Source of the DNA: a virus
Taxonomy: Duplodnaviria > Caudoviricetes
Virus record (IMG/VR): IMGVR_UViG_3300037316_000015
Span: 1 to 57,979 of that record
Reading direction: 5' to 3' (one strand)
Length of the DNA stretch: 57,979 bases
Shown: positions 1,280 to 55,805 of the stretch, piece after piece
How the letters are laid out: each line of letters opens with the position of its first letter
How positions within the stretch are numbered: the stretch's first letter is position 1
The notes under the pieces: generated by a model
Seen by the model: the letters and a program-made list of their open reading frames with translations, nothing else
Database searches by the model: none
Told to the model about the DNA's origin: nothing
Made by a program: the position numbers and the translations under genes

Positions 1280-1287
1280 GGAGCAAC

Positions 1288-3051
1288 GTGGCCGACACCA
1301 GGTATTCCAGTGCAGCCACCATCGGTGATGACCAGGCCCTTGATGAAGTCCGCCAGCTCGAGAATGGCCCGTTCTACCTGAATGAGCTTGGCAGTACAGG
1401 TCTGAAGCGGGCTGCCGGGTACATCGACGAGGAGTTCCTGCCACAGCTGCGCGGCCGCAAGGCCGTCCAGGTCTACCGGGAGATGGGCGACAATGATGCC
1501 ATCGCCTCGGCAATGCTGTTCTCCATCACCCAGCTGCTCCGAGGGGTGAGCTGGCCAGTAATCCCTGGTGGCAAGGGCCGGGATGATGCCAAGGCAGCCA
1601 AGCTCGTTGAGACGTGCATGGAGGACATGTCGTCATCGTGGGACGACGTGATCCAGGAGATTCTAACCTGTCTGCAGTACGGCTGGAGCTGGCATGAGAT
1701 TGTCTACAAGCGGCGGATGGGCCCTTGGCAGAAGGACCCCCGGCACAAGAGCAAGTACGACGACGGGCTCGTCGGCTGGCGCAAGATGCCTATTCGCTCT
1801 CAAGAGACATTGCTACGTTGGGTCTTCGACGATCAAGGCGATGTCCAGGCGCTGGTCCAGCTGGCGCCACCTGACTACAAGACCAGGGTCGTGCCGATCA
1901 GTCGGTCGCTTCTCTTCCGGTTCGGTCACCACAAGGGCAACCCGGAGGGACGTTCCATCTTCCGCGGTTCCTACCGGTCCTGGTACTACAAGAAGCGCCT
2001 CGAGGAGTTCGAGAGCATCGGGGTAGAGCGGGACCTTGCCGGACTGCCCATGGTGAGCGTGCCTTCTGACTACCTGCGGGCACGTCCTGGCACCGAGCAC
2101 TACAAGATGGTCGAGGCCATGAAGAAGATGGTCCGTTCCATCCGGCGCAACGAGCAGGAGGGGCTGGTCTTCCCAACCTCCTACGACCCTGACACCAAGA
2201 ACCCGCTGTTCAAGTTTGAGCTGCTGACCAGTGGTGGCCAGCGCACATTCGACACCAACGAGCTGATCCAGCGGTACGAGCAGCGCCAGCTCATGACGAT
2301 CCTGGCTGACTGGATCATGGTGGGCCACCAGGAGACTGGCACGTACAACATGCACGTGGACAAGACAGGCATCTTCAAGAGCGCCCTGAATGCCACTGTC
2401 GGCTCGGTAGCCGATGTCTTCAACCGGTACGCCATCCCACGGCTGTTCGCTGCCAACGGGTGGAAGCCTGCCACTCTGCCTAAGATCGAGCCGGCAAACG
2501 TCGACTCCCCCAACCTCACCGAGCTCTCCGGGTTCCTGACCCAGACTGCTGGCCTTGGCTTCACCTGGGGCCCGGATGCCGACATGGAGCGGTTCCTGCG
2601 TGACGCCGCCGGTCTGCCTGCTCTTGGCGCCCAGGACATGGAGAAGCGTCGCCGGATGGCACGGATGGATGAGGCGTCCCAGTTCGCCGAGGCTGAGACT
2701 CGTTACCTGGCTGCGCGCTCTCAGGTGGCTGTTGCACTGGCTGCCGAGCAGCAGATGGCCTCTGGTGAACCGACCATTGAGTCCGCCCAGCTAGGCCAGC
2801 AGGTGGACTCGGCCAACCAGGATGCCCAGATGAGCCAGGCTTCAGGGGCTCAGTCCCTGGCACAGGGTCAGCAAGGGCTTGCTCAAGGCGCCCAGCAGAT
2901 GCAGCTGGCGCAGTCTGGCGAAGGTCGTGCCCAGGAGCAGCACAAGCGGGCTGGTCAGCAACAGCGGTTCGACCAGGCGCAGGCCAAGAAGGAGAACACC
3001 AGGCCCAAGGCCAAGCCGAAGGCGAAGATCAAGGCGAAGGTCAGCCGATGA
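1288..3051 (+). CDS. Portal protein (DUF935/Mu gp29-like)
   Basis: ELGSTGL, YGWSWHEIVYK, GNPEGRSIFRGSYRSWYYKK and GVERDLAGLP motifs; GAGGAG SD before GTG 1288. Confidence 0.9.
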   Translation: MADTRYSSAATIGDDQALDEVRQLENGPFYLNELGSTGLKRAAGYIDEEFLPQLRGRKAVQVYREMGDNDAIASAMLFSITQLLRGVSWPVIPGGKGRDDAKAAKLVETCMEDMSSSWDDVIQEILTCLQYGWSWHEIVYKRRMGPWQKDPRHKSKYDDGLVGWRKMPIRSQETLLRWVFDDQGDVQALVQLAPPDYKTRVVPISRSLLFRFGHHKGNPEGRSIFRGSYRSWYYKKRLEEFESIGVERDLAGLPMVSVPSDYLRARPGTEHYKMVEAMKKMVRSIRRNEQEGLVFPTSYDPDTKNPLFKFELLTSGGQRTFDTNELIQRYEQRQLMTILADWIMVGHQETGTYNMHVDKTGIFKSALNATVGSVADVFNRYAIPRLFAANGWKPATLPKIEPANVDSPNLTELSGFLTQTAGLGFTWGPDADMERFLRDAAGLPALGAQDMEKRRRMARMDEASQFAEAETRYLAARSQVAVALAAEQQMASGEPTIESAQLGQQVDSANQDAQMSQASGAQSLAQGQQGLAQGAQQMQLAQSGEGRAQEQHKRAGQQQRFDQAQAKKENTRPKAKPKAKIKAKVSR

Positions 3052-3344
3052 CATCAGACATTGCCGCGACCATGGCCAGCGCTCGTCAGACAGTGCTTGG
3101 GGTCGTCACTGCTCGGATGTATGACGACATCAACGCCGCGACGTACATGATCGACTCCTTCGTCAAGGAGATGACTGACAACGGTCAGACCTCAGACGAT
3201 GCCTGGGCTCAGATGTTCGCCGCTTCCGTGCTGCTGATCATCCCTCTGGTGGAGTGCCGATCGGCCCACCACAAGATCAGCCTGGATGACTCACTGCGCG
3301 AGATCGGTGTTGTCCTGGCTGAGTTCAGGGATCAGCATGGCTAA
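3048..3344 (+). CDS. Hypothetical protein
   Basis: 98-aa ORF with ATGA overlap with the portal stop. Confidence 0.7.
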   Translation: MTSDIAATMASARQTVLGVVTARMYDDINAATYMIDSFVKEMTDNGQTSDDAWAQMFAASVLLIIPLVECRSAHHKISLDDSLREIGVVLAEFRDQHG

Positions 3345-5064
3345 CCGGCGTGAGGATGCCACCACAGCAGCAGTCGGTGGCACTGGGGTGTTCGCTGCCA
3401 GAGCTCTGTCACACAGTGCACTGTCATCTGCATACGGCTACGACAAGCATGGCAAGCCGATGCCTCGGCCGAGGGTATTCGCAGAGCGCAAGATCCTGAC
3501 CAGGAAGCCGATGCGAGGCAAGGGACGCCTGGGCGCCTCACTGGCCCTGACGACGATGTCTGTGCCACCGGCTGTGGTTGGGTTGAACAACCTGATGCAT
3601 GGGCACAGGTCTGAGGCTTCCAAGAGTGACAGCTCCAAGAGGCCGTCTCTGTGGCGTGATGCCCAGCATGGGGTGAAGTCGTCTTTGCACCAACGCAACA
3701 AGACCATCTCCCAGCACGCCCCGATCAGTCGTCAGGCAGAGAGCTACGGGGTCGGCACCTTGACTGGGTCGGCTGCCGGCGGCTTGACAGGTCTGGCACT
3801 GAAGAAGGTCAGACTGCACGGTGGTGCCAAGGCAGGTCTGATCGGACTGGCCGGGCTCACCACCGGTGTAGCCACTCTGCCGGCTCAGAGCAAGCTCATG
3901 CGGGCCACCAGCCACGGTAAGTACTCGGTCACCCCGACCGGTGTGGCCCGGACCAAGACCAAGCCTGCGCGGCCGTCAACTCGAGCCACAAGGGTGGAGC
4001 GTCGCAACGGCACTGAGGTCCCTAGTCGTCTTGGTAAGTCGGCTTCCTACCCAGGGTCCAACCTGTCTCATGGTCAGAAGCGAGCACTGGTACTGGCCGG
4101 TGGGACGACACCTCTGGTTGGTGACTTCACCGCGGCCGCTACTGCTGGCCGGATGGCACCACCGAACCTGCGCAAGAAGACGGCAGCACTGCAGGCCACT
4201 GGTTCTCTTGGTGGATCGGCTGTAGGTGGCGCAGCTGGTGCCTACGGTGGTGCTGCCCTAGTTCGCCATGTGCCGGCTCTGCACGCCCCGGCCGCTCACA
4301 TCAAGAACACCGTCGACACCGTCAAGCATGGTGTGGCCAGCCGCATTCACCCCAAGCTAGGTGAGGTTGTAGGAAGGCGTCAGGAAGCTGCGCGTAGCGG
4401 TGTCGACACTTCCAGGATCACCAGGCTGGCCGCTCATAGGCATCCAGCGCTAGCCAGGGTAGGACGGGCAGCAGTGCGAGCTCGCAAGCCACTGCTCGGT
4501 GTCGGTGCTGTGGGGGCAACATTGGGCCTGGCAGCAGGGCAGAGCGCCGGCTCCACCATCGGGTCTTCACTTACCTACGGCCATGCACTGAAGCTCGAGG
4601 ACAAGCAGCGTGGCAAGCGGGTGGCCAAGAGCAAGGACACCAGGCATGGCACTCGTATCTCCAAGCTGGCAACAGCCCCAGGGATGAGTGAGCGTGAGCG
4701 TCATAAAGCGGCCAGAGCCAAGGAACAGTCAGCGGTGCTCAGCCAGGTTGGGGGCGGTCTTGGTCTGGCTGCTACTGGCTCTCTGCTTGGCAGCAAGGTG
4801 GTACACAATGCCAAGTTGGCTAGGCATCTGAAGGCAGCCCCAGTGCCGATTATGGCTCTTGGTGGCAGTGTCGGTGCCGTCAATGCGTTCAAGTACGCAG
4901 CCATCCAGCATGCCGAGGCCAAGAAGCTAAGGGCGCCGCAACCAGTTGTAGCGTCCAAGGCTTTCCCTTTGCCTCGTGTCAAAAGCATGAAGGGCGCCTA
5001 CCTGCGTCAGACTAGGACCGCTGCAGGGATCAAGACAGCTACCGTTCGCGGAGGACTGACATGA
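3337..5064 (+). CDS. Basic Gly/Ala-rich multi-helix putative internal head (poly)protein
   Basis: About 575 aa from ATG 3337; K/R/H-rich with several GA-rich hydrophobic segments; ASKS, LGKS, VAKS, ISKL, ASKA sites. Confidence 0.7.
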   Translation: MANRREDATTAAVGGTGVFAARALSHSALSSAYGYDKHGKPMPRPRVFAERKILTRKPMRGKGRLGASLALTTMSVPPAVVGLNNLMHGHRSEASKSDSSKRPSLWRDAQHGVKSSLHQRNKTISQHAPISRQAESYGVGTLTGSAAGGLTGLALKKVRLHGGAKAGLIGLAGLTTGVATLPAQSKLMRATSHGKYSVTPTGVARTKTKPARPSTRATRVERRNGTEVPSRLGKSASYPGSNLSHGQKRALVLAGGTTPLVGDFTAAATAGRMAPPNLRKKTAALQATGSLGGSAVGGAAGAYGGAALVRHVPALHAPAAHIKNTVDTVKHGVASRIHPKLGEVVGRRQEAARSGVDTSRITRLAAHRHPALARVGRAAVRARKPLLGVGAVGATLGLAAGQSAGSTIGSSLTYGHALKLEDKQRGKRVAKSKDTRHGTRISKLATAPGMSERERHKAARAKEQSAVLSQVGGGLGLAATGSLLGSKVVHNAKLARHLKAAPVPIMALGGSVGAVNAFKYAAIQHAEAKKLRAPQPVVASKAFPLPRVKSMKGAYLRQTRTAAGIKTATVRGGLT

Positions 5065-5579
5065 TGTATGGCCGACTGGGCATGACCGGGTCTGCACTTG
5101 GCCGCGGTGACAGTTCTGTGATGAAGATGGACACCACCATGAGTGAGCAGGATGCACACAAGCTGGTGACTCGTCATGGCACCCAGGGCCGGCTACCCAA
5201 GGAGCTCGGCCGTGACGACCGGATGAAGGCCTACGAGGCCAGGTACGTGGCCTCTGGTGGCAAGAAAAGCGAGAAGTGGGGCCACCGTGCCAACCTAGCT
5301 GACATCGGTCGCACTGCTGGGCTGGCAGGTGCCACGGCGTCTGCTGCCGCAATCCTGGCCGGCCGCGGCAAGCGCGTAGGCAGGCTGGCCGCCAAGGTCC
5401 CAGGCATACGTCACATCAAGCCGCATCACCTGGAGACGGCTGCTCTGTCCTCTGCCACTGGTGGTGGGATTTCTGAGCTCTACGGTGGGTATGCTCGCAA
5501 GAAGCGTGCGTCCTACCAAAGCTCCCCAGGAGGGGTTGCGGCCAGTGCACTGACCAGAATGCGTGGTTATACCCCATGA
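5061..5579 (+). CDS. Basic Gly/Ala-rich putative virion protein
   Basis: 172 aa, ATGA-coupled on both sides, two GA-rich helices, VMKM site. Confidence 0.7.
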   Translation: MMYGRLGMTGSALGRGDSSVMKMDTTMSEQDAHKLVTRHGTQGRLPKELGRDDRMKAYEARYVASGGKKSEKWGHRANLADIGRTAGLAGATASAAAILAGRGKRVGRLAAKVPGIRHIKPHHLETAALSSATGGGISELYGGYARKKRASYQSSPGGVAASALTRMRGYTP

Positions 5580-8500
5580 CTCTTGTACCTGTGAGCGGCC
5601 TGCTAGCCACTGTTGTTGACCTTGCCGAGCAGGATCCAGACGCTGCAGACGAGCTGGTTCGTCTTGGGCTGTACGAGTCCATGTCTGACCAGATCGAGGT
5701 GGCCAGGCCAGCTATCGAGGCCGAGGCTGTCGAGATCATCTCCAAGCAGGCAGCTCGGGCTCGCTCCGCTCTGCTGCGTGAGTACGTCGGCAAGGCCCTG
5801 GATGGCAAGCAGCCGGCTGACGCCACCGTGACTGCACAGGGCCTGGCCATCATCGACACGTATGTGGCCAAGGGCATCGGGCGGTCAATGCTGGACTTCG
5901 TCAACAACAAGCGTGACAAGCGTGGTCGGTTCGCTCCGGTTGACTCCCTCGGTCATGGGCTGAACAGAACACCGAAGAGTGAGCTTCAGCCAGACGACAA
6001 GTCACGTCGGGAGACTGCGACCAACCAGGCATCTGAACGGGTCAAGCAAGGGATTGATAGTGGTGCATTGAAGCCTGATGATCTGGTGCAAGTGCACTTC
6101 TCGACCAACCCTGACAAGCACACGAAGACCAAGAGCCTGAAACGAGAGTTCAAGGCCAGCGAGGTCGACGACAAGATCGAGGAGTACCGAGCCGCCGATG
6201 AGGCCGGTCCAGACCCGAAGTACCCCACCGGCATTGCCATGCCTAACAAGCTCCCTGCTGGTGTCCCCATGACTGGCAACAACCGGGCAGCCTATGACGC
6301 CATGGCTGGGTTCACCGGGCCTGAGGCAGCAGGTCGGATCGCTGGCCATATCCCGGCCAGAGGCAGTATTGCCTCAGCCAATGTTGCCGAGAACTGGAAC
6401 AACGCCAGCGATGGCAGTGACCGGCGTTCTTACCGGCGCATCGGGATGATGGGCACCGCGCTGACCAATGCCTCAGGGGACAACTCAACTAGTGCCATGG
6501 TCGGTGGTCTGGCTCAGCTGATCGGTGAGCTCGGGCCTGAGGCAGAAGACGTGCTCTCCCCTGGGTTCACCAGGATTGCCTATCGCTACCGTGGTACCGA
6601 GAAACGCCCTGACTCTGAGATGCTCTCCCAGATGGCTCAGGCGGACAGGACACTGTCAGTGCTGGACCCTGACCTGCCGGCGAAGGCTTCTGCCAAGCGT
6701 GTCGGGGATGCCAGAGTTGCCTCTGAGGACAAGCGTGAGGAACTGCTGGACACGTACAAGCATGACAAGAGCCAGGGGAACAAGGTCGCTGGTGTGATGG
6801 GGTACTACTCCCAGGACCGAGTCTTCAACAGCCTGACCCCAGACCAGCGTTCCATGCGGATTCGCGGAGACATGCTCTCTGCTGACCTGATGGACCGGGT
6901 ACCTGACGCCAAGCTGGCTGACCTGTCGATCAGCTCTGGTCAGACGCCACCGTCTGTCGGGGTCATGCTCGATGCTGAAGGCAAGGTCGTTTCCGAGGCG
7001 ATGGGTTTCAACGGTGACCACTACCTGCCGTTCGACCTGAAGAACCTCAAGGCTCTGCACGGTGGCCAGTACGTTCGTACCCGCACCATGGGTGGTCCCA
7101 CGACCGAGGACATCTACACCGGTCTGATGACAGGGGCTCGACAGCTGCAGGTGGTGTCCAACTCCGGGGTCTACACGGTGGAGTTCGACCCTGACCTTCG
7201 AGGCGGCCGCCGGTACAGCGACAAGGCCAAGAAGATGGTCGAGCGCTACGGCAGGATCCTGGACGCGATCGGGTCAAACGAGCTTTACCGCCAGGATCTT
7301 CCTGCAGCCAGGAAGCAGGAGATCTGGGAACAGGCAATGGACTCTACTGGCTGGGACCCTACCAAGGGTGGCGAGGCGTACCGGGACATGATCAAGGAAG
7401 CCCGTCTGCGTGAGGGCGGTGGTCAGTCACTGACCGGCAGCAGCAAGGTGGCTGTCGAGACAGAGGCCAAGGTTGACGCTCAGATGAAGGCCGAAGACCA
7501 GCAGTCTGGTAATGCCCTGCGAGGCGCCGGCCGAGCCCAGCGCAAGGCTGAGTTGATGCGTGAGCAGATGGCTATCGCTCGAGAGACGGCCGTCGACCAG
7601 TACCAGCTCAACGGTCCTGGTTACCACGATGCCTTGAAGGCGCTCAAGACTGAGTTCCCGTACTACATCCGCAGTGTGAAGTACGAGGAGATCCCCCAGT
7701 TCAACGAGCGCCGCAAGCTCGGGCCGATGACCAGGCGCAACCGGGCCTACAGCAACGACCGTGGCTACACCCCACCCGGGTCCAACCGTGCCAGTGCCGA
7801 GGAGAACGCGTATCGGGGCAAGGAGGCCAAGGCAGGTATCGGTGGTCGTGGCAAATGGAAGCCAAAGGGCGCAGCAGCCGAGGCCACTAACGAAGCTGAT
7901 CAAGAAGTGGACGAGACAACTGGTAGTGCTAGTGCGACACACGCACGTCCTGCACTTGGCGGCCGGGTTGCTGCCACACATCAGTTCGGCGGCGTGCGAA
8001 TGTCTCTGGACAAGGACACCAAGCCGTTGACCGAGATCCTTGGCCCGGGTAAGGCTGCTTCTCGTCAGTTGATGATCCCGTTGACCAAGCTGCTGACGAC
8101 GGTGAAGACCAACTCAAACATGTACGGTCCGAACGGAAGGATCCAGGAACCTGTTGGTGGCGAGACAGTAACCGTGGACAAGGGACCGATGTATGTCATG
8201 AATGCCTGGTCCAAAATGGTTGGTACTGATCGCCCGCAGCAGTTTGCCAACTGGGTTATCGGCAAGGCCACTGACCAGGAGCGTGATGCAGTCATCGAGA
8301 CGCTGAACAGCATCCCAGAAATGGTGTCAAGCATCTCTGACGTGAACGCTCGTGAGCAGGTTTATGCCAACTACGGCGGTGTCGACGGTGTGAAGGAGTC
8401 GGTCAAGGAAGCGGTAGCGCTGACATCACTGGCCAGTCCGTTTGGGCCGGCTGCTGGTGACGAGGCGAAGATGGCCATGGCACTGCCTGCCTCCGGTGAT

Positions 8501-8971
8501 CCAAAGCCTCAGCCATTCCCTGCTGTGCTCCAACTTGGTGACAAGCTGAGCAACTACACGGACTGGGAGTCCAAGGCAGTCAATAGCAAGATTTTGCCTC
8601 AGGTTCAGGGGATGAAGGGCAAGTCCGACGCCGAGATCGGTCAGTGGCTCACCAGTGCGATCGAGGCGCATAAGCAGCTCGAGGAAACTGGCCGGCCTGG
8701 TACCAGTCAGGAACAGCGTGAGCGTGTCCAGGCGATTAGCAACGTGCAGCAAGCATGGGCATTCGTCCGAGCCAAGTCACTGGTTGAGTCACTGGGTGGC
8801 CTCCCAAAAGCGCAGGCCCCTCAGCAGGGGGCAGCCAACCCGTGGTCCCCGCCGGCAGCAGGGGTAGCGGGGTTCAAGTCAGCGTCCCTGGACCAGCCAG
8901 CGTGGACAGTGGGGGATCTGGCGGCAACGTACAGCCGGTCGGAAGTGCTCGCCTACCTGGCACAGGGGTAG
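5576..8971 (+). CDS. Large putative internal head/ejection protein with degenerate JAB/MPN-like domain
   Basis: 1131 aa; ISKQ, VGKA and VAKG followed by KRDKRGRF; central segment resembling JAB-like domains. Confidence 0.7.
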   Translation: MTLVPVSGLLATVVDLAEQDPDAADELVRLGLYESMSDQIEVARPAIEAEAVEIISKQAARARSALLREYVGKALDGKQPADATVTAQGLAIIDTYVAKGIGRSMLDFVNNKRDKRGRFAPVDSLGHGLNRTPKSELQPDDKSRRETATNQASERVKQGIDSGALKPDDLVQVHFSTNPDKHTKTKSLKREFKASEVDDKIEEYRAADEAGPDPKYPTGIAMPNKLPAGVPMTGNNRAAYDAMAGFTGPEAAGRIAGHIPARGSIASANVAENWNNASDGSDRRSYRRIGMMGTALTNASGDNSTSAMVGGLAQLIGELGPEAEDVLSPGFTRIAYRYRGTEKRPDSEMLSQMAQADRTLSVLDPDLPAKASAKRVGDARVASEDKREELLDTYKHDKSQGNKVAGVMGYYSQDRVFNSLTPDQRSMRIRGDMLSADLMDRVPDAKLADLSISSGQTPPSVGVMLDAEGKVVSEAMGFNGDHYLPFDLKNLKALHGGQYVRTRTMGGPTTEDIYTGLMTGARQLQVVSNSGVYTVEFDPDLRGGRRYSDKAKKMVERYGRILDAIGSNELYRQDLPAARKQEIWEQAMDSTGWDPTKGGEAYRDMIKEARLREGGGQSLTGSSKVAVETEAKVDAQMKAEDQQSGNALRGAGRAQRKAELMREQMAIARETAVDQYQLNGPGYHDALKALKTEFPYYIRSVKYEEIPQFNERRKLGPMTRRNRAYSNDRGYTPPGSNRASAEENAYRGKEAKAGIGGRGKWKPKGAAAEATNEADQEVDETTGSASATHARPALGGRVAATHQFGGVRMSLDKDTKPLTEILGPGKAASRQLMIPLTKLLTTVKTNSNMYGPNGRIQEPVGGETVTVDKGPMYVMNAWSKMVGTDRPQQFANWVIGKATDQERDAVIETLNSIPEMVSSISDVNAREQVYANYGGVDGVKESVKEAVALTSLASPFGPAAGDEAKMAMALPASGDPKPQPFPAVLQLGDKLSNYTDWESKAVNSKILPQVQGMKGKSDAEIGQWLTSAIEAHKQLEETGRPGTSQEQRERVQAISNVQQAWAFVRAKSLVESLGGLPKAQAPQQGAANPWSPPAAGVAGFKSASLDQPAWTVGDLAATYSRSEVLAYLAQG

Positions 8972-9705
8972 AGCGCAAGGTCTTCGCTGAGGACCGACTG
9001 GCACCATTGGCCATGGCATTGCGTGACCTGCTCGGTGAGCTGCGTTCATCGGCACCACAAGCGATCACCGAGCCTCAGATGAACGGGCTCAACAAGGACA
9101 TGAAAGAGGCAATCTTCAATGTTGAAGCAACCGGTGACATGGCTCCACTGCATGCTGTACTGGCCAGAGTGGAGACCGGCGCCAAGGCTGCCGGTGATGC
9201 GGGTAAGCCTGTTCTCAACGGTGTTCAGTGGATGCGCGACGACCTAGCAGGGCACCGCCCGGTGAAGAACACTGGTGAGGGTGCACCTGTCGCCCCGCAG
9301 GCACCTGCGGGTCCTCCTGCCAAGTACAGGGCACCGCAGGCCCCATTTATCTCACCGCGGGCCATACGAGAAAAGAACCGGCCTCCGCGGCGCGACATCT
9401 CTGACACTGAGCTCTACCGGCTGGCCAGCGAGCAGAGAGCACGCAAGGTCAACAGACCACGACGGATGCTCAGTCCTGCCAAGCTGGCCGGCGGTCATGG
9501 TATCCAGCTGCACTACGACGACTTCGGATCTGACGATGGTCAGTACCCTGACGTGCAGCGTGATGACATGACTGGCCAGAGTGCTGCTGAGGCTGAGCTG
9601 CCAACGGTGACCAGGAGAACACTGGTTCGTACCGGGACCAGAGCCAACGTTGGTCCATTTGGTCGCAAGGCACCTCTGCGTCGCCGCAGGAAGACCGACG
9701 CATGA
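8803..9705 (+). CDS. -1 frameshift extension of the 1131-aa protein (or independent 287-aa ORF from GTG 8842)
   Basis: The -1 frame opens after TGA 8785-8787; slippery C_CCA_AAA at 8803-8809; ATGA-coupled to the next gene. Confidence 0.65.
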   Translation, partial: PKSAGPSAGGSQPVVPAGSRGSGVQVSVPGPASVDSGGSGGNVQPVGSARLPGTGVERKVFAEDRLAPLAMALRDLLGELRSSAPQAITEPQMNGLNKDMKEAIFNVEATGDMAPLHAVLARVETGAKAAGDAGKPVLNGVQWMRDDLAGHRPVKNTGEGAPVAPQAPAGPPAKYRAPQAPFISPRAIREKNRPPRRDISDTELYRLASEQRARKVNRPRRMLSPAKLAGGHGIQLHYDDFGSDDGQYPDVQRDDMTGQSAAEAELPTVTRRTLVRTGTRANVGPFGRKAPLRRRRKTDA

Positions 9706-12593
9706 CCACCAGATGGTGGGCGCCGACTCGAGCAACGGTGGATCCTGACCAGGTGGTGCTGGCTCTGCTGCAACCAAGTGGTCACGCCAGCGGTGACCTT
9801 GGTGCTACCCTGCTGGCAGTCCACCGGGCCGGGGCGGCAGCAGCCGAGACTGTGTCCAAGTCAGCGGTACCCAGTGAGGTGTCCCTGGTGACGACACTTG
9901 CAGATAACAGGTCCAGACTTGCAGATCTTGTGGTCGACTCGGCTTCTGCCTCAATGGACGCCACCTACGCCGGGCTGTTCGTGCGTGACTTCTTCGATCA
10001 GGCTGAAGAGTCGGTCCTGGCCTCGTACCGGACCATGGTTGCCAAGGGGGTTAGCCCACCACTGGCAGTCAACCGTGCAGCGGCCGTGTACGGTGTCGCC
10101 TCCAGCGGGCTTGGCAAGTACTTGGCAATGGCCTCTGATCCCAAGGCCAACCCGATCGCGCTCACTGATGCTGCCGATCGTGCTCTGCTGGAGTATGTCT
10201 CCAAGATGGTCGGTATCGAGGCAGAGGACACCAAGGAGCCAGTGTCCAAGGCCGAGCCATTGCTGACAGCTCAGGACCAGTGGGACGCGCAAGAGCACCC
10301 ACGAGATGCAGTAGGCCGGTTCGCTGACCTGACCGGTGAGCGCGAGGGGTACCAGGAGCAGGTCACTGAGGTAGACCCAACAGAGTTGGCGATGTTTCGC
10401 TCCATGATGGGTCTTGGCGGCCAGGCTGCACCTGATGTTGGCTCTACCCCAGCAGCACGTAGAGCAGCGCGTGTAGCCCGGGTACGCCGTGCAAATGCAC
10501 TGGTAAAGCCACAGGCTTCTCTGGTGGCTACGAAGCAGGAGTCAGCACAACTAGTTAGTCCCAAGCTGACTTCTGCCCGCTTGAGTAGCGCTGCACTGCG
10601 TAGTGCCACCTTGAAGGCAAGCGCCATCGTTGACCTGGTACAGCCACCAGTGCCAGAGGCAGCAGGCCATGATGACTCGGCCATGGCTATGTACAGCGAT
10701 GAGTCCAGGGAAGGGTTCAAGGAGCTGACTCGTAACATCGAGGTCTATCTGCCGTTTGCAGATGGTCAAGACCTGCGTGGCCAGATGCCTGGAACATCCA
10801 AGCAGAAGGTTCTGCGTCTAGGTCATCTGCTTGACGCTGCGTACAACCACTACAACATCAATGACCCTACGGATCCTGATGCTAATCCTGAGGCCAAGGA
10901 CGCATTCGGCATGGTTGCCAGCACCGAGAAGCTCACTGAGTACGGGGATGACAACGGCGGAAAGTATGGACCTGCAGCCTCAGAGATCACAGAAGATGAG
11001 TATGTTAAAGCTGAACATGAAGGGATGAGTAGGGACAAGTACGTGAAGGAGCTGATCAAGAAAGAAGGAATGGTCGGTGGGGAGCGCAATCCCAAAGAGG
11101 AACCACACGTCCACTTCGCGATAGATCACTCTGACCGCCGTAGCCACGTGCTGGTGCACGTTCAGGACGATCCAATCAGTACTGCTCTCAAGCCGAACAA
11201 CAAGGTCAGGCCAAAGCCGACAGTGGTGCAGTTCACGCTTCCCAAGGTGGTCGCTCGAGTAGATGACGAGCCTGGCCGACACTTCGAGCAACTGACGTTA
11301 GATAAGAACCAGGCCTACCTCAGCGCTGATCTGATTCGTATGTATGACATGGATGAAGAAGTCTTCGTCAATGAATACTTGCTCACCCCGATCAGTGACG
11401 AGGAAGCTGCAGCAATCCAGAAGAAGAGTGGGTTGAGCAAAGCCCTGGACACCATGGAACGAACCAGCTTCGACCAGATGCATCCACGCTCAGAGGATGG
11501 CGAGTTCCGCAGTATCGCAACCAGAGCTCGTCTGGTGCCTACTGCTCCATCTGACATTGGCCGGCGCTGGTCAACACTGGAGCGTTCTGATGAGTCGTTG
11601 AAGGCGCCACTGACAGAGGATCGTGCCAAGCGCCGGGCCAGTCGTGTCAGCAGGGTAAACAGAGTTCAGCAGATGGCTACTCAGTCTCAAGCGCCAATAG
11701 CTTTTGATACTAAAGTCAACCTGACCTCTGCACCGCTAGGCAGCGCCAGGTTGAGCAGTCCAAGGTTGACATCGGCTCAGCTGCAGGCTTCCAAGCTCAG
11801 CGAGATTCTGAGGGACCCGATTGACGACACCAAGATGGTGCTTGATGACAACCATGTCTATCGGGTGATGAACCACGACGAGTTCACCAAGCTGGTCAAG
11901 AAGCACACAGTCAGTGGTGGCATCGCTGGTATTGGCAGCAGCTCGTTGAAGACAACGTTCCTTCACCCTGAAGGCAAGAGCCAGATTCTGTCTCTTAGCG
12001 AGTACGGTCCTGACGAAGTCATGCGGCACATGAACAACACCACCGAGGAACTGGCTGGTGGCAAAGCCGGCCAGTATATGAAGCAGCTGTTTAAGCACAC
12101 GGTACGCAGTGATACCTCAGAGCATGAGTACGAAGACCTCGAGGCGCTTCGCCAGAAGATCGACGCTGAGCTGAGCAAGCGGCCGAATATGGCTTATGCG
12201 ACTGCCGATCCTGAGCCGCCAGAGATGGACTACGGCAGCTCTGGTGTTGGCCAGGATTTGATGGATGACGTGAACCCGATGGATGCACCACAGGCTGCTG
12301 GTGAGTCAGTGACATGGGTTGTGCACGGCAGTACCAGACCAGTTGCTCCGTTGTACCTCATCGAGATGGACCCTTGGAACGGGTGGCCAGATCCTGACGC
12401 TGACCTGACGTTCCTGGGCGATTACAAGGGCCGGGACATCACCTACAAACGACCTGATGATCCGCGTAGCCCTGTTCGAGCAGATGAGCTTAGCTCGTCT
12501 GTTGTGAGCAATGCCATGATCAAGGTCTACAAGGCTGAGTTCAGCCGATATGTGTTCAACCCTGTCAACGAAGATGAGCTGCCGAGGAGCTGA
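9702..12593 (+). CDS. Large putative internal head polyprotein with two duplicated modules
   Basis: 963 aa; VSKA...HPRDAVGRF and LSKA...HPRSEDGEF, each followed by an Arg-rich helix and LxSxx pentapeptide repeats. Confidence 0.7.
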   Translation: MTTRWWAPTRATVDPDQVVLALLQPSGHASGDLGATLLAVHRAGAAAAETVSKSAVPSEVSLVTTLADNRSRLADLVVDSASASMDATYAGLFVRDFFDQAEESVLASYRTMVAKGVSPPLAVNRAAAVYGVASSGLGKYLAMASDPKANPIALTDAADRALLEYVSKMVGIEAEDTKEPVSKAEPLLTAQDQWDAQEHPRDAVGRFADLTGEREGYQEQVTEVDPTELAMFRSMMGLGGQAAPDVGSTPAARRAARVARVRRANALVKPQASLVATKQESAQLVSPKLTSARLSSAALRSATLKASAIVDLVQPPVPEAAGHDDSAMAMYSDESREGFKELTRNIEVYLPFADGQDLRGQMPGTSKQKVLRLGHLLDAAYNHYNINDPTDPDANPEAKDAFGMVASTEKLTEYGDDNGGKYGPAASEITEDEYVKAEHEGMSRDKYVKELIKKEGMVGGERNPKEEPHVHFAIDHSDRRSHVLVHVQDDPISTALKPNNKVRPKPTVVQFTLPKVVARVDDEPGRHFEQLTLDKNQAYLSADLIRMYDMDEEVFVNEYLLTPISDEEAAAIQKKSGLSKALDTMERTSFDQMHPRSEDGEFRSIATRARLVPTAPSDIGRRWSTLERSDESLKAPLTEDRAKRRASRVSRVNRVQQMATQSQAPIAFDTKVNLTSAPLGSARLSSPRLTSAQLQASKLSEILRDPIDDTKMVLDDNHVYRVMNHDEFTKLVKKHTVSGGIAGIGSSSLKTTFLHPEGKSQILSLSEYGPDEVMRHMNNTTEELAGGKAGQYMKQLFKHTVRSDTSEHEYEDLEALRQKIDAELSKRPNMAYATADPEPPEMDYGSSGVGQDLMDDVNPMDAPQAAGESVTWVVHGSTRPVAPLYLIEMDPWNGWPDPDADLTFLGDYKGRDITYKRPDDPRSPVRADELSSSVVSNAMIKVYKAEFSRYVFNPVNEDELPRS

Positions 12594-13690
12594 TGAGCGT
12601 GCCTAACGCTAGCTTGGTACCGACCAGTGGCAGGATGACCCACATGGCAGCCCGATCGGACATCGTTCGTGCCGGGGCAACCCCGGAGTTCGTCACCTTG
12701 TGCAAGACGCTCTACGGTGACCTGATTGACCCTGACGAGATCTGGCACGAGGTGTTCAAGTCCAGCCCTGACCAGGCTGACGTGCATGCCAACACCGGGA
12801 TGTCGACCAAGCAGAAGATTGTCCGCGGGGCGTCTCTGATCGGTACTGCTGCTGGTGCCATCGTGGCCGGCAAGGAACTGGTCAAGGCCCCCGGTGTAGC
12901 CCGCAGGATTCTGCCAGGGCTAGCCCTTGGTGCTGATGGTCTGGCTGGTGGCATCCAGTACAACGACGCTCGCAAGCAGGCAGCACTGGTGCCAACAGGT
13001 AGCCAAGTCGGCAAGAGCGGGTCCACGCCTGCTGGTGACACCATCCCGCCACTGAAGGATGTGGTCACCGGGGCTCTGAAGCAGACCAAGAAGATCGTCG
13101 GGCAGCTGCAGCCCACTGGTGCCGGTGCCACTGTGCCGGCGGCACCGATGGCTTTGGCCGGGCCCAAGAAGCTAGCACCGACACCGCTTGGCAACCAGAG
13201 CTCGGAGTTCTCTGGCGGCAAGAGCGCCGATGACATCGAGTGGTCTGGGACGTTCTCCAAGTTCGACGACGACAAGCACCTGGCCTTCGGCTGGGCCTCG
13301 GTGTCCAAGGTCAACGGTCAGCCGGTGGTCGACGCACAGGGTGACTACATCGACCCGAACGACCTGGAGGATGCGGCATACGAGTACATGCTCAGTTCTC
13401 GGATCGGCGGGGCCATGCACCAAAGGGATGCCTGGGACCGGCCGGTGAAGGTAGCCGACATCGTGGAGTCGATGGTCTTTACCGACGACAAGGTCTCCAA
13501 GATGGGTCTGCCCGATGACTTCAACCGGGGCTGGTGGATCGGAATGAAGATCCACGACGAGAACGAATGGACCTCGGTGCGCAAGGGCCAGGACGGTACC
13601 GGCTTCGGTCGTTGCGGCTTCTCCATCCACGGCAATGGCGTCCGCAAGGACCAGGACATTGATGAGCTGATGGGATACGCGTATGCCTGA
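12593..13690 (+). CDS. Prohead protease, XkdF/Peptidase S78_2-like, with N-terminal extension
   Basis: FSKFDDDKHLAFGWASV, VVDAQGD, LEDAAYEY, AMH, VES, GWWIGMKI, W..VRKG and GFSIHG motifs. Confidence 0.85.
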   Translation: MSVPNASLVPTSGRMTHMAARSDIVRAGATPEFVTLCKTLYGDLIDPDEIWHEVFKSSPDQADVHANTGMSTKQKIVRGASLIGTAAGAIVAGKELVKAPGVARRILPGLALGADGLAGGIQYNDARKQAALVPTGSQVGKSGSTPAGDTIPPLKDVVTGALKQTKKIVGQLQPTGAGATVPAAPMALAGPKKLAPTPLGNQSSEFSGGKSADDIEWSGTFSKFDDDKHLAFGWASVSKVNGQPVVDAQGDYIDPNDLEDAAYEYMLSSRIGGAMHQRDAWDRPVKVADIVESMVFTDDKVSKMGLPDDFNRGWWIGMKIHDENEWTSVRKGQDGTGFGRCGFSIHGNGVRKDQDIDELMGYAYA

Positions 13691-14114
13691 GATGCGTAAC
13701 AGGGTGTTCGCCAAGTCCCTGTACAGCCGTGACCGACACACGTCCGGCACACGTCTGCTGCGAACTGGGGCCGGGCTGGCGCTCGGTGCCTGGGGCATCA
13801 GCCACTCGCCTATGGTTGGGAACGCACTGGCGCGTGGGGTGCGGGCTGCATCAGAGCACCAGAGCCAGGCAGCCATCGACGCAATGCAGGTTGCTCGTTC
13901 TGCCTACGGTGCCATGGCCCGGGGGACCGCTCGAGGAGAACGTCAGGTACGTCAGATCCAGGCAGTGAACCGGTCAGTCGACAAGGTTCCTGTCGCTATT
14001 CGTCCGGCTGTGGCCACCAGTGCTGGCATGCTTCTTCTTGGCGGTGCTTTTCCGGTCCGGCGGACGAGCTACCACCCCGTCAACATCCGCATTCGTACAG
14101 GGGTGAACCGATGA
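13683..14114 (+). CDS. Basic membrane-helix putative virion protein
   Basis: 143 aa; FAKS near the N-terminus; two hydrophobic helices. Confidence 0.65.
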   Translation: MPEMRNRVFAKSLYSRDRHTSGTRLLRTGAGLALGAWGISHSPMVGNALARGVRAASEHQSQAAIDAMQVARSAYGAMARGTARGERQVRQIQAVNRSVDKVPVAIRPAVATSAGMLLLGGAFPVRRTSYHPVNIRIRTGVNR

Positions 14115-14671
14115 GTGGACTCGTCAACGGCGGTCACGGCCGGCGCATCACCGAGGAACCGATCGTCTTCTCCAAGTCCCAGGTGCCAGCTGACACCAAG
14201 CCGAAGTGGACCCACAAGGACACGGCAGCAGTAGCAGGTCTCGGCGCAGTTATGGTCGGATCAGCAGCTGGTGGTGCCATGGTCGGACGAAAGGTGGTCA
14301 ACGCCGCCAGTCGAGCTCGCTTGGTGAAACTTCACAACAAGTCTGTTGTCCACAAAGCCCAGCGCTACTACGACCCCGAGCACCGTCGCCAGCGTCGGTT
14401 CGGGATGACTGAGACAGCACTGGCCATTGGCGGTGGTGCTCTGGCTGCTCATGGCATAGCCGGCAAGGTAGGCATGCGTGCTACGACCAAGATTGCCAGG
14501 CAATCTGTGGAAGAGTCGACCAAAGCCAAGCATGGCCTCGATGTCAGTTCCAAGCTGCTGGCCACCAGTCGTCGCAGTGCTGCCGAGACAGCCGGCGGTG
14601 CAGGCTTGGTAGCCGGTGCCAGTGGCTTGCACTACCACGGCAACCACTCACGCGGGAAGTCCTGGAGGTAA
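14111..14671 (+). CDS. Basic Gly/Ala-rich putative virion protein
   Basis: 186 aa; FSKS and VHKA sites; three GA-rich helices. Confidence 0.65.
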   Translation: MSGLVNGGHGRRITEEPIVFSKSQVPADTKPKWTHKDTAAVAGLGAVMVGSAAGGAMVGRKVVNAASRARLVKLHNKSVVHKAQRYYDPEHRRQRRFGMTETALAIGGGALAAHGIAGKVGMRATTKIARQSVEESTKAKHGLDVSSKLLATSRRSAAETAGGAGLVAGASGLHYHGNHSRGKSWR

Positions 14672-14673
14672 CC

Positions 14674-15519
14674 ATGGCCAAGCCAAAACGCAAGTACCGC
14701 GGCGGTGGTGCCAACTCTGCTCAGTGGGCTAGCAATGAGGTAGCCAAGCCGCGCCGGCCGATTGCACAAGCGCACAAGACACCAGTTGCAGCACCAGTAC
14801 ACACGGCGCCAATAGCACAACCGGCGTACCACGGACTGCCGGATGACGATGCGTCGGTAGCTGCCAGGTTCAGAGCCAATCCAGCTTTGGAAAGAGCACA
14901 TCACGCATCGCCGGTCAAGCACACCAGTTTCTCTGGCACTCGTGCTGGCAAGATCACTAATGGTGTCGCTCTTGGCGGAGCTTTGGCTGGAACTGGGTAT
15001 CTCATTCACCGGCATCGCAAAGCTGCTCGTGCAACCATGGCAATCGAGGCAAGGAAGAAGGCGGAAATGTCGAAGTCTCTGATCAACCCGTTCGAGGAAG
15101 TGGTGGTCTTCGGCAAGGCCTATCCGGTCGCATTGCCGGTGGCACATTCCACCAAGATCCGGGCACTTGTTCCCACAGGTGCTCACGTGGGCCATGGCAA
15201 CAAGCTTGTCGTTGTCCATGGCGGTGGCCCGAAGATCACCCGTCAGCAGTTGCAGACCTATCACGGCCACGGCCGAGGTCTTAGTGAAGGGCCGTTCGGG
15301 AAGTCCCTGTTCCCTTTTGACGGAGCCCAGTCCTCCCCATCAGCAGGCAGTGGGGGCGGTCTGGGCGACTCAACGAACAGTGCTACTTCGCCGGGAAAGC
15401 CCGGGGAGCCGAAGAAACCATTGAAGCCAACGGCTGTCAAAGGCCCGACTTCACCAAGACGAAGCATCCCCAATTCCAACATTCCGGATGCGTCCAGCAA
15501 GGGTTCCCGTATCGCCTAA
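14674..15519 (+). CDS. Basic putative virion protein
   Basis: GGAGG SD; 281 aa; MSKS, FGKA and FGKS sites; one hydrophobic helix. Confidence 0.65.
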   Translation: MAKPKRKYRGGGANSAQWASNEVAKPRRPIAQAHKTPVAAPVHTAPIAQPAYHGLPDDDASVAARFRANPALERAHHASPVKHTSFSGTRAGKITNGVALGGALAGTGYLIHRHRKAARATMAIEARKKAEMSKSLINPFEEVVVFGKAYPVALPVAHSTKIRALVPTGAHVGHGNKLVVVHGGGPKITRQQLQTYHGHGRGLSEGPFGKSLFPFDGAQSSPSAGSGGGLGDSTNSATSPGKPGEPKKPLKPTAVKGPTSPRRSIPNSNIPDASSKGSRIA

Positions 15520-15569
15520 CGGCGTGTCGGTGACTAGATTGACAGACGAGCACTCAAAATGAGGTCAAC

Positions 15570-16784
15570 ATGGGACAGAAGATCAAGCGCCTCTCAGGCC
15601 TCGAGATTGACGAGGTTTCCCTTGTCAACCGCCCAGCGAACCAGCACGGTATCGTTGCGATCGCAAAAAGTCAGGAGAACGTGATGGGCATCCAGGACGC
15701 AGAAGGCAACGAGGTCGAGCTTGACGAGCTGGAGATCGGTGACTACGTCTACGACGACAACGGCACCGAGTACCAGTGGGTCGACACTGGCGGCGACGAT
15801 GGCCAGAACGACGACGGCCAGGGCTACGACGATGGCCAGGGTGTCGACGACGGCTACGATGACGGGTATGGCGAAGTCGGCAAGGCTGGCTCCGCACTGG
15901 CAACGACTCGTTTCGGTAGCAGGACGGCTGCTCGGGTCAGTGGGGTCGCCAGAGCAGCCGGTCAGCGCAACGCAGCTCGTGGCCGTGAGGCTGGAGAGCG
16001 TCTTGGGCGCCGTGGCCGGAGTGCTGGCACCAGGGCTGGTATGACTGCACGTTCTGCTGGCACCAGTGCTCGCAGCGTTGGTGATTCTGCCAAGTTGCAT
16101 GGCATGTATGCGGCTGACGCAGGTCGTGGCGCAGCAGGCAACGCTTACGGCGCAGCGCGTTCCAGTGCCGCTGGCCAGCATGTGATGCAGCACCAGGGCG
16201 CCTACCGTGCCGGTGCTGGCGGCGCAGCTGCTGTCGGTGGCTTCGGTGCAGGCCGCGGTCGACGTGGTTCGGTCAGTCACTCGATGGGTGACGAGGTGCT
16301 GGAGTCACTGTCCAAGTCCTTCAACGACGATGACCGCAACGAGGTCATCGCCAAGGCCATGGACTACGTGCAGTCTGTGTCCGAGCGCAACGAGCAGCTG
16401 GAACAGGTTGTGTCCGACATCGTGCAAGACCGTGATGTCGAGGGGTACTTCGAGCTCGCCAAGAGCTACGACCTTCCAGTGGATCCAGAGCAGATCGCCG
16501 GCATCATGTATCGGGCATCCCAGACGATGCCTGACGAAGATGTGGCGACCATGGACCGGCTTTTCTCCTCGATGGGAGAGGTCAACAAGGCCTACTACGA
16601 CGAGATCGGCTACAGCGGTGACGGCTTCCAAGGCGACGCCCTGTCCCAGATCTACGCTGCAGCCGGCGGGGTCGTGGCCAAGTCCGACTCCGGTCTTACC
16701 CAGGAGCAGGCTGTGACGGCACTGTTCGACGCCAATCCCGCTGCGTACGACGAGTACGAAGCCGAACAGCGCAACTACCGCTGA
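15570..16784 (+). CDS. Scaffolding protein carrying an N-terminal protease-type EVSLVNRPAN strand
   Basis: Position before decoration and capsid genes; acidic helical C-terminus ending EQAVTALFDANPAAYDEY; many x-x-K-S/A sites. Confidence 0.75.
   Translation: MGQKIKRLSGLEIDEVSLVNRPANQHGIVAIAKSQENVMGIQDAEGNEVELDELEIGDYVYDDNGTEYQWVDTGGDDGQNDDGQGYDDGQGVDDGYDDGYGEVGKAGSALATTRFGSRTAARVSGVARAAGQRNAARGREAGERLGRRGRSAGTRAGMTARSAGTSARSVGDSAKLHGMYAADAGRGAAGNAYGAARSSAAGQHVMQHQGAYRAGAGGAAAVGGFGAGRGRRGSVSHSMGDEVLESLSKSFNDDDRNEVIAKAMDYVQSVSERNEQLEQVVSDIVQDRDVEGYFELAKSYDLPVDPEQIAGIMYRASQTMPDEDVATMDRLFSSMGEVNKAYYDEIGYSGDGFQGDALSQIYAAAGGVVAKSDSGLTQEQAVTALFDANPAAYDEYEAEQRNYR
15795..15869 (+). repeat. Coding tandem repeat DDG(Q/Y)
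   Basis: Five gacga(c/t)gg-type units encoding DDGQNDDGQGYDDGQGVDDGYDDGY. Confidence 0.8.
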
Positions 16785-16795
16785 GGAGACATGCA

Positions 16796-17194: not shown

Positions 17195-17218
17195 AAGCCT
17201 GAGAAAGGATAATCAGCC

Positions 17219-35570: not shown

Positions 35571-35636
35571 GGTGTGCTCTTTCCTGTGGGTACGGCTGGC
35601 GGCCTGAGTCTACTCCTGGGCCTGATTTTGGGCATG

Positions 35637-35688
35637 AAAAAGAGACCCTCAGGGGCCCCACCACTTTCGTGGCAGGACCCCGTCAGAC
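35637..35688 (-). terminator. Intrinsic terminator after the Bro-N gene
   Basis: GGGGTCCTGCCAC-GAAA-GTGGTGGGGCCCC hairpin then TCTCTTTTT on the - strand. Confidence 0.7.
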
Positions 35689-55795: not shown

Positions 55796-55805
55796 TACAT
55801 CAGTG

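Follow-up and report, generated by a model that had tools for sequence, protein, structure and literature searches.

Do the genes between the portal gene and the decoration gene of a siphophage head module encode precursors that the phage's own head protease then cuts? The question is raised by IMG/VR record IMGVR_UViG_3300037316_000015, a stretch of 57,979 bp (about 60% G+C, rated 74% complete) that was analyzed in full, is called the window below, and is a fragment of an uncultured siphophage genome. A preliminary description had noted that the open reading frames (ORFs) between positions 3337 and 16784 carry many short hydrophobic-x-K-(S/A) peptides, and had proposed that these 13 kb encode precursors that are loaded into the prohead and cut into some 20-30 mature peptides. 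Gene order, motif statistics, conservation, gene fusions and predicted disorder were established directly. On this basis we give somewhat better than an even chance to a reading in which hydrophobic-x-K-(S/A) would be the motif of the prohead protease, the scaffold would be diced at it, and cargo proteins would be trimmed at their ends and linkers. The ORFs of the block all lie on one strand between portal and scaffold with overlapping stops and starts, and they are encoded inside the head morphogenesis module, which runs from the portal through about 10 kb of genes for putative internal proteins to the protease, and on through further basic proteins and the acidic scaffold to decoration and capsid. 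Features are on the plus strand unless stated otherwise.

ORFs were called greedily, and ten small overlapping ORFs were removed before motifs were counted; the block comprised 10 ORFs (4524 aa) and the rest of the proteome 54 ORFs (14,267 aa). Expected counts were obtained from within-protein shuffles, 1000 of them for the block test. The 26 lysine positions in the preliminary description are all AAG or AAA codons, in frame in long plus-strand ORFs, and the tetrapeptides read as given there. The test proposed with them, a count of [VILFMA]xK[SAG] (the loose motif), yielded 33 matches in the block against 27.4 ± 4.8 expected (z = 1.2, not significant) and 56 against 50.2 in the rest. The twofold difference in the density of the loose motif (7.3 per 1000 aa in the block, 3.9 in the rest) is due to composition, the block being richer in K, A and G, and it is this non-enriched pattern that the listed sites require. 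The definition in the title of that description, [VILFM]xK[SA] (the strict motif), did show enrichment, with 25 sites in the block against 11.5 ± 3.1 (z = 4.3; none of the 1000 shuffles reached 25) and 22 against 23.5 in the rest. When all 20 residues were tried at the K position in the block, K was the sole strong outlier. Taken singly, P3 and P1' around all block lysines were unremarkable, so that the signal consists in co-occurrence. Shuffling within 20-aa stretches gave the same expectations as shuffling whole proteins. The signal was uneven: the scaffold-like ORF contained 7 sites against 0.42 expected, about one third of the block total, and the other nine ORFs together 18 against 11 (z = 2.3; p = 0.03 with 20-aa local shuffles). 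Several listed sites in the 592-aa and 172-aa ORFs, namely ASKS at 3622, VMKM at 5124 and ISKL at 4663, are compatible with chance, and ISKL has no S or A at P1'.

Relatives were collected by an alignment-based scan of IMG/VR, which returned 129 related places, 80 of which were kept as loci (L numbers below); an earlier scan with single sequences had given five pattern matches, none confirmed. The relatives share a conserved gene order: portal, a small acidic protein, a large basic protein (400-1050 aa, pI about 11.5), the family of the window's 1131-aa protein and an ORF of about 282 aa, followed by the family of its 963-aa protein, the protease, basic proteins, an acidic scaffold-like protein (pI about 4.2), decoration and capsid. 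Strict sites numbered 196 vs. 19.8 expected in the scaffold family (26 sequences), 165 vs. 52 in the protease family (37 sequences), 67 vs. 33 in the 963 family (18 sequences) and 192 vs. 124 in the 1131 family (50 sequences). The bordering structural genes gave 48 vs. 54 for portal (45 sequences), 12 vs. 11.7 for capsid (14) and 2 vs. 7.3 for decoration (21). Two complete relatives, of 70,449 and 69,238 bp and both with terminal repeats, were fetched whole. Their scaffolds contained 9 vs. 0.94 and 8 vs. 0.90 strict sites, and their blocks without the scaffold 21 vs. 10.0 and 23 vs. 10.1. The proposed check of site conservation in homologs thus came out in favor of the motif, which is kept and specific for K, with scaffold columns carrying it in 9-27 of 27 sequences. 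Among 185,579 species genomes we found one contig of a Microlunatus metagenome-assembled genome and a short Acidobacteria fragment, and no prophage copies; the candidate host is probably actinobacterial.

The strongest signal resides in an acidic protein of 404 aa (15570..16784; pI 4.5) whose gene immediately precedes those for decoration and capsid. It has the position and acidity of a scaffold and belongs to no catalytic family. By homology it gave weak PHROG matches to families of unknown function, and its homologs in the cultured phages Laroye, Ottawa and ValentiniPuff are annotated as 'hypothetical protein'. Its strict sites are K33, K105, K249, K262, K298, K340 and K371, and a basic insert extends from K105 to K249. 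In the alignment of the family, two columns carried the motif in all 27 sequences and others in 9-25, and some columns arose in part of the sequences only, at positions that are not homologous. Among 380 lysines in the scaffolds of relatives, the next residue is A or S in 213, P3 is I, V, L or F in 269, and P2 is A, S or G in 234. R was not enriched in place of K (9 vs. 14), a result that speaks against a generic helical pattern. The proteins encoded at the same position in cultured phages are also rich in sites, with 10 in KPP23 ORF085, 8 in Laroye gp24, 9 in Ottawa gp98 and 12 in ValentiniPuff gp54; the scaffold-family profile matches the three actinophage proteins among them (54, 33 and 29 bits), and KPP23 ORF085 was not reached. 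As a separate observation, a peptide of the type E-x-S-x-V-D/N-x-P-A-N (window 15600-15670) precedes the first K site of the scaffold. It is present in 27/27 aligned relatives and in the same-position proteins of Laroye, Ottawa, ValentiniPuff and KPP23, and may bind the protease or the capsid.

A scoring matrix (P5-P2 and P1'-P2') was built from all lysine contexts of the relatives' scaffolds only, and applied at a threshold of at least 4 bits with 20-aa local shuffles. In the nine non-scaffold ORFs of the block it found 14 sites against 1.9 expected, and in the proteome outside the block and the tape measure 5 against 5.35. By protein, there were 3 vs. 0.56 sites in the 1131-aa protein, 3 vs. 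0.36 in the 963-aa protein, 1 vs. 0.01 in a 143-aa, 2 vs. 0.14 in a 186-aa and 2 vs. 0.15 in a 281-aa protein; the 592-aa, 172-aa and protease ORFs were not significant individually. The candidate internal proteins therefore carry, at putative propeptides and linkers, the same motif as the scaffold, except the 592-aa and 172-aa proteins taken alone. The basic in-block ORFs of 21 loci likewise had 103 vs. 62 strict sites and 25 vs. 12.8 matrix sites.

The protease is encoded as a precursor of 365 aa (12593..13690) with an N-terminal extension containing a Gly/Ala-rich segment. By profile and by conserved Ser and His residues it is a member of the XkdF-type serine protease family: Pfam Peptidase_S78_2 matched aa 220-348 (nt 13250-13636) at 48.7 bits against a cut-off of 24, over profile positions 4-121 of 126. 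H276, S293, S344 and H346 are invariant in 30 protease sequences and are candidates for the active site. A search of PDB sequences gave no match for the protease. About 10 residues before the domain lies K210 (GGK/S, the slash marking the putative cut; 13220..13222), a candidate self-processing site at which the charge switches from a basic extension to an acidic domain. The corresponding column, 8-10 residues before the domain, has the strict motif in 17/31 relatives, and KPP23 ORF084 has FEK103/S at the equivalent place. A domain that releases itself would be expected to do so here. The earlier remark that sites often fall at compositional boundaries holds for K210 and for K105 and K249 of the scaffold, and these are the sites to which it applies. 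The protease gene of six relatives runs on into a basic tail (276-611 aa, pI 10.5-11.3), which is a Gly/Ala-zipper sequence like the separate proteins encoded downstream in the window, and in 6/6 a hydrophobic-x-K is found no more than 5-7 residues from where the protease domain ends. The protease has to be inside the prohead, and a head-internal location of the basic proteins is therefore supported by these fusions better than by any other observation here.

The 1131-aa protein (5576..8971) belongs to a conserved orphan family and consists of an N-terminal helical hairpin, a disordered linker with a header-like motif (see below), a conserved core and a disordered C-terminal tail. None of its 68 metagenomic homologs had a Pfam domain. 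An AlphaFold2 (AF2) model from a 65-sequence alignment reached a mean pLDDT of 78, with the hairpin at 9-99, disorder at 101-132 and 1077-1112, and a confident multi-domain body between them. The candidate N-terminal sites are K73 (VGK/A) and K99 (VAK/G), at 5792..5872. The K73 column has the strict motif in 14/25 sequences, and K99 is at least 90% conserved in 65. K99 ends the predicted helix 84-99 directly before the disorder at 101-132, and K1078 is placed directly before the predicted 1077-1112 disorder. Across 25 sequences the strict sites, counted by tenth of the length, number 46, 1, 0, 2, 0, 0, 0, 4, 5 and 28, with lysines overall evenly spread. A site occurs within the first 120 aa in 23/25 and within the last 120 aa in 21/25; the middle holds 12 strict sites in 21,065 residues, about one quarter of expectation.

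Searches with the model of the 1131-aa protein were too weak to name a fold. The best Foldseek matches in the PDB were a deaminase (E = 0.19) and JAB/AMSH (E about 1.5), a PDB sequence search with its profile found designed helical bundles (E = 0.24), further fold searches (VIA, wide search) matched the N-terminal hairpin only (Z ≤ 7.5), and BFVD returned uncharacterized homologs from uncultured phages only. The possibility that this is a MuF protein was rejected: hhalign gave a probability of 0.2 against three MuF proteins, and no ORF of the block matched Phage_Mu_F of Pfam. A search for longer fused forms of the core found none, which is weak evidence. Within the core (about aa 310-560 and 680-700; window 6500-7750), about 40 residues are invariant in 65 homologs, which suggests an enzyme or a tight binding module.

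The 963-aa protein (9702..12593), with 18 homologs in related loci, begins with a helical domain and continues with two units, each made up of a site, a header peptide, an Arg-rich stretch and a Ser/Ala/Leu repeat. AF2 was confident for the helical domain at 29-176 and low elsewhere (mean pLDDT 55). In the first module, VSK183/A is followed after a gap of 15 residues by HPRDAVGRF (aa 199-207; module at 10248..10322). K183 is invariant in 19/19 sequences and lies in a predicted disordered stretch (177-197) just after the N-terminal domain; H199, R201, G205 and F207 are conserved. In the second, LSK580/A precedes HPRSEDGEF (aa 594-602; 11439..11507) by 13 residues; R596, G600 and F602 are invariant, and K580 is in a low-confidence stretch of the model (577-584). 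In the closest relative, L006, residue 580 is R and another K site lies closer to the header; K53, K115 and K183 are kept there. The linker unit, comprising header, Arg-rich stretch and five-residue Ser/Ala/Leu repeats, is duplicated inside the protein (E = 6e-9). The two copies lie at window 10400-10620 and 11620-11810, each with the Arg-rich stretch first and then four or five repeats; NCBIfam gave chance-level pentapeptide-repeat matches at aa 260-306 and 669-701. The best score in the ESM Atlas was 0.77 and uninformative.

A degenerate header of the xKRDxxGRF type was also matched by regular expression in the 1131-aa protein (aa 111-119; 5906..5932), 12 residues after K99, and its R113 and G117 are nearly invariant in that family. 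Sites of the 963 family lie 6-22 residues upstream of the header. Over the headers of all loci and the window, a strict site was found at most 25 residues upstream in 31/51 and in the downstream control window in 0/51. A profile built from 42 module segments matched 1314 representative proteins at E ≤ 0.001, the longest having 7334 aa, and as many as 20 stretches were matched in a single protein. In a Pfam scan of 14 of these, 8 contained ART-PolyVal, 3 MuF (one of them fused to a Mu-type portal) and 2 InPase; others contained Kinase-PolyVal, ADP-ribosyltransferase or Zeta-toxin domains, and one had no domain. The header is thus a general feature of head-associated polyvalent proteins, and the 963-aa and 1131-aa proteins share it with bona fide members of that class. 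Among the best 150 of the 1314 representatives, an upstream strict K site was present at 109/618 headers against 31/618 in the control. The coupling is stronger in the lineage of the window, as expected if the K site reflects that lineage's own protease. Both large proteins have several folded parts in AF2, weak fold matches only, and no Pfam, PHROG or NCBIfam family.

The remaining ORFs of the block encode mostly basic proteins. The first, with a pI of 11.8, has 592 aa if read from the first ATG at 3286; its more probable start is the ATG at 3337, which gives 575 aa (3337..5064), because relatives align from residue 18-20 on. Hydropathy indicates about 7 Gly/Ala-rich hydrophobic segments. Its lysines K251, K448 and K558 are kept in L006, and K113 and K131 are not. 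The 172-aa protein (5061..5579; pI 10.6) has one Gly/Ala-rich segment and no strict site, and is fused to a 592-like protein in L010. Downstream of the protease follow an Arg-rich protein of 143 aa (13683..14114; pI 12) with a candidate 11-residue N-terminal propeptide (FAK11/S), a basic 186-aa protein (14111..14671) with two Gly/Ala-rich segments and candidate sites K22 and K82, and a basic 281-aa protein (14674..15519) with candidate sites K134, K148 and K210. K11 of the 143-aa protein aligns with the internal K354/A of a 488-aa fused protein in L006, and K22 and K82 are both kept in that relative, in which the 281-aa protein had no alignable homolog. A basic 287-aa ORF from the first GTG (8842..9705) has no family and no strict site. 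It overlaps the 1131-aa gene by 130 nt in another frame, and its real start is probably near 8971, after the stop of that gene; relatives have a 282-aa ORF at this position, without detectable similarity to it. Mildly hydrophobic Gly/Ala 'zipper' segments with basic flanks recur in the window at 3337-5579, 12800-12900 and 13683-14671: the 592-aa protein has about 7, the 186-aa protein 2, and the 172-aa protein, the N-terminal extension of the protease and the 143-aa protein 1 each.

The motif is conserved, specific for K, placed at predicted disordered linkers, domain boundaries and fusion junctions, and depleted in the core of the 1131 family. This is the behavior of a short linear motif that is under selection and linked to the module of head protease and scaffold. 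In the reading that we favor, hydrophobic-(S/A/G)-K followed by S or A would be what the prohead protease of this lineage recognizes. The small basic proteins would be co-assembled inside the prohead together with the 1131-aa and 963-aa proteins, and after assembly of the shell the scaffold (7 copies of the site here, 8-12 in relatives) would be diced into peptides small enough to leave it. The protease would free its own domain from the basic N-terminal extension and, in the fused relatives, also from the basic C-terminal tail. Trimming of the internal proteins would be confined to accessible ends and linkers, with folded cores kept free of the motif: the 1131-aa protein would lose its N-terminal hairpin and C-terminal tail, the N-terminal domain and the two header-led units of the 963-aa protein would be separated, and propeptides of 11 and 22 residues would be removed from two of the small basic proteins. 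The HPRDxxGRF-like header downstream of the linker sites would be a separate and widespread element, probably concerned with docking rather than cleavage.

This proposal keeps part of what had been suggested for the window. A selected, K-specific motif tied to the protease and scaffold module has indirect support, and the '13 kb of precursors' are not supported as such, since they include the protease and the scaffold, which hold the strongest signal. The scaffold contains about one third of the sites, the other ORFs exceed chance by some 7-12 sites, and the first 2.3 kb (the 592-aa and 172-aa ORFs) are not enriched; cutting of the whole 13 kb into 20-30 peptides was therefore overstated, and end trimming with the separation of a few modules is the likely extent.

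A bolder version of the proposal, which we regard as possible but doubtful, takes a site, 6-22 residues and a header together as a cut-and-dock cassette. The header would hold modules in the prohead and, in this lineage, the protease would cut just upstream of it, so that multi-module head proteins and their fused or split gene variants would become true polyproteins, delivered to the host in separate pieces. The very basic zipper proteins, which some relatives have fused to the protease, would form a second delivered class acting on DNA or at the membrane.

Several observations weigh against processing of internal proteins at this motif. Members of the clade are known from sequence alone, and the family-level z-scores are inflated by relatedness, the portal showing R at +8. 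The strict motif without the scaffold is just 18 vs. 11, and there S and N are equally high at the K position; the 592-aa ORF has 2 vs. 2.2 strict sites and the 172-aa ORF 0 vs. 0.6, and of 40 basic ORFs in the blocks of relatives, 19 lack a high-scoring site. The 2169-aa tape measure of the window (22323-28832), which a head protease should not meet, has 6 matrix sites (K290, K386, K497, K1631, K1657 and K2092) against 0.95 expected; this excess is not repeated in the tape measures of the two complete relatives (2 vs. 1.1 and 0 vs. 1.2). The rest of the proteome is enriched too in one of these, labeled G002 (49 vs. 29), and is not enriched in the other (31 vs. 25). A basic protein of 226 aa (pI 10.4) with 5 strict sites, encoded in G002 just after the capsid gene (35382-36062), adds to the former excess; its counterpart position in the window is occupied by a 195-aa ORF (18217-18804). 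Of the motif columns in the protease family, the two with the highest conservation (25/31 and 19/31) sit inside a helix of the catalytic domain and are absent from the protein of the window, so a conserved match can be structural and not every one is a cut site. The residue after K at the six fusion junctions is M, A, M, R, A and V, often not S or A, and the same holds at header modules. Finally, the interval between the portal/MuF-protease genes and the scaffold gene in the cultured relatives Laroye, Ottawa and ValentiniPuff (L001, L002 and L005), which have capsid and scaffold genes in common with the window, is filled with many genes that are small or code for enzymes (aldolase, RNase, RNA ligase and VRR-Nuc by annotation). 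In these phages the interval is an insertion hotspot for non-structural genes, and position alone is therefore no proof of packaging.

This last observation, the modest excess outside the scaffold and the two ORFs without any would all be accounted for if the motif served the scaffold and the protease alone, in ordinary head maturation, the large and basic proteins were products of non-structural or non-packaged genes in an insertion hotspot, and their matches were mostly chance. We think this improbable. The gene order from portal to scaffold is kept across distant relatives, the scaffold-trained matrix found its excess in the non-scaffold proteins, and the strict excess outside the scaffold was repeated in two whole genomes. 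Moreover, basic tails are fused in six relatives to a protease that must be inside the prohead, and the 963-aa and 1131-aa proteins share their header with MuF and portal-fused polyvalent proteins.

No more probable is a motif that is real and never cleaved, a contact or helix-end element by which scaffold, protease and some internal proteins would bind the inner capsid or each other; the proteins would then remain whole or be cut at other places. The two conserved columns within the folded protease helix, the variable residue after K at junctions and the high score of the window's tape measure would suit it, as would the many sites at predicted helix ends (K73, K99 and K897 of the 1131-aa protein, for example). 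A helical or amphipathic pattern, however, would accept R, E or Q, and K alone is enriched, tenfold in scaffolds, with R not enriched; the depletion in the core of the 1131 family fits avoidance of cuts better than binding, and sites are found right at fusion junctions and where the protease domain begins. That the pattern is a by-product of Lys/Ala/Ser/Gly composition and post hoc choice of motif is very unlikely and already largely refuted for the scaffold: although the loose pattern is not enriched, no P3 or P1' position stands out, and the tighter patterns and the matrix were chosen after the data were seen, the title's definition was set before testing and holds against local shuffles, the matrix was trained on scaffolds of other genomes and tested on non-homologous proteins, two further genomes repeat the excess, and end-clustering in the 1131 family cannot arise from composition.

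Processing of the protease and of the scaffold themselves would be textbook head maturation. In HK97-type maturation the capsid protein is cut between Lys and Ser, and the capsid of Listeria phage A511 is cut Lys-Ser as well. The candidate cut in the window is similar, being after Lys and before a small residue. In those phages the delta domain or the capsid N-terminus is cut, whereas here the capsid has no excess of sites and the substrates would be separate scaffold and internal proteins. In the myovirus T4 the gp21 prohead protease cuts after Glu, the same motif dices the scaffold core, and basic internal proteins (IPs) and Alt are encoded in the head module. Like the IPs and Alt, the proteins described here include basic candidate internal proteins of the head module with short N-terminal propeptides (predicted at 11 and 22 residues) and a motif shared with the scaffold. 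Unlike in T4, the protease is of the XkdF type, the candidate cut is after Lys, and the proteins are far larger (1131 and 963 aa), unrelated in sequence, and known here from genes alone. The T4 propeptides target proteins into the prohead core, according to PMC10052503.

In the giant phages phiKZ and SPN3US, whose ejection and inner-body proteins are processed by the prohead protease gp245, many head proteins share one short motif of the protease, the protease cuts itself, and many other head proteins stay uncut (PMC10052503 and PMC7411985). N-terminal propeptides of SPN3US are either short, at 20-24 residues, or long, at 111-254 residues and cut several times (PMC10052503). These are myophages of 240 kb whose head is T=27 and whose motif ends in Glu. 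The present genomes are instead of siphophage type and about 58-70 kb, with a lambda-gpE-type capsid and a Lys motif, and the sites occur also at C-terminal tails and internal linkers.

Polyvalent proteins, described in 2017 by Iyer, Burroughs, Anand, de Souza and Aravind, are large multi-module proteins encoded beside portal and MuF genes and predicted to travel in the head (PMC5512222). The suggestion that such a payload is not usually recognized in siphophages is not supported as worded, because MuF-linked polyvalent proteins are described there. For these proteins the same text proposes processing by their own metallopeptidase domains, as for P1 DdrB. The header of the 963-aa and 1131-aa proteins recurs in ART-PolyVal, Kinase-PolyVal, InPase and MuF proteins, but unlike polyvalent proteins these two have no recognizable polyvalent or enzymatic Pfam domain and no MuF. 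The Dar proteins of P1 (DarA, Hdf, DarB and DdrB) are large anti-defense head proteins, some of which are processed before or during loading (PMC5512222, PMC12810830 and PMC9024508); P1 is a myophage, and its protein families are unrelated to those in the window. Processing of head cargo by a prohead protease and the class of polyvalent proteins are therefore already known. A header peptide or linker motif is not mentioned in the main text of PMC5512222, its supplements being outside the search. In the open-access literature, again excluding those supplements, a Lys-specific motif for XkdF-type proteases, the header, the coupling of the two, the fused and split variants and the families themselves were not found. 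The specificity of XkdF proteases was likewise not found in the literature, the matches having the appearance of genome reports by title and abstract.

If the proposal is correct, it provides the first candidate specificity for XkdF-type head proteases, which can be checked in cultured phages that have the scaffold and protease in common with the window, namely Arthrobacter phages Laroye and Ottawa, Microbacterium phage ValentiniPuff and Pseudomonas phage KPP23. Mid-sized siphophages would then carry several thousand residues of internal proteins processed as in T4 or phiKZ-like phages. The widespread header peptide of polyvalent proteins would be linked to head maturation, and loading and splitting of giant proteins would become testable. 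The 1131-aa, 963-aa and basic Gly/Ala-zipper families are candidates for early-acting or anti-defense cargo.

The block is flanked by typical head genes. Upstream are the portal protein (1276..3051; Pfam Portal_Mu at 88 bits, phrog_113 at E = 1e-76), with 1 strict site against 1.3 expected and hence no excess, and a small acidic protein of 98 aa (3048..3344), which had no family match in Pfam or PHROGs; an acidic ORF of 84-96 aa occupies the same position in L006, L015, L020 and L030. Downstream are the decoration protein (16796-17194) and the lambda-gpE-type major capsid protein (17219-18217), matched by phrog_673 and phrog_1005 (E = 1e-84), with 0 and 1 strict sites, respectively, and again no excess. 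The capsid protein begins at position 2-3 of its PHROG profile. Within the block, Pfam and NCBIfam matched the protease domain alone, NCBIfam being otherwise at chance level, and PHROGs added just two weak matches of unknown function, both to the scaffold-like ORF. Megablast of 1276-18217 gave no match among GenBank phages, and tblastn of the 1131-aa and 963-aa proteins gave none among 50,697 GenBank phage records and no cultured member of the clade. No terminase was found on the 57,979-bp fragment, and Rfam had no match in the window.

A 240-aa ORF upstream of the portal gene (201-923) showed a sub-threshold match to Glyco_hydro_25, a lysozyme family (E = 0.0016; 19 bits vs. a cut-off of 27). 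The head module is followed by the tail tube protein, the tape measure and then a replication module on the opposite strand. The latter (44247-46949, 49225-50100, 51283-52557 and 55805-55878, all on the minus strand) comprises a DnaE-type Pol III alpha with PHP, NTPase, finger and HhH domains, a Toprim primase and a DnaB-type helicase, and is listed with one tRNA-Gln (CTG), the only tRNA of the window and far from the block.

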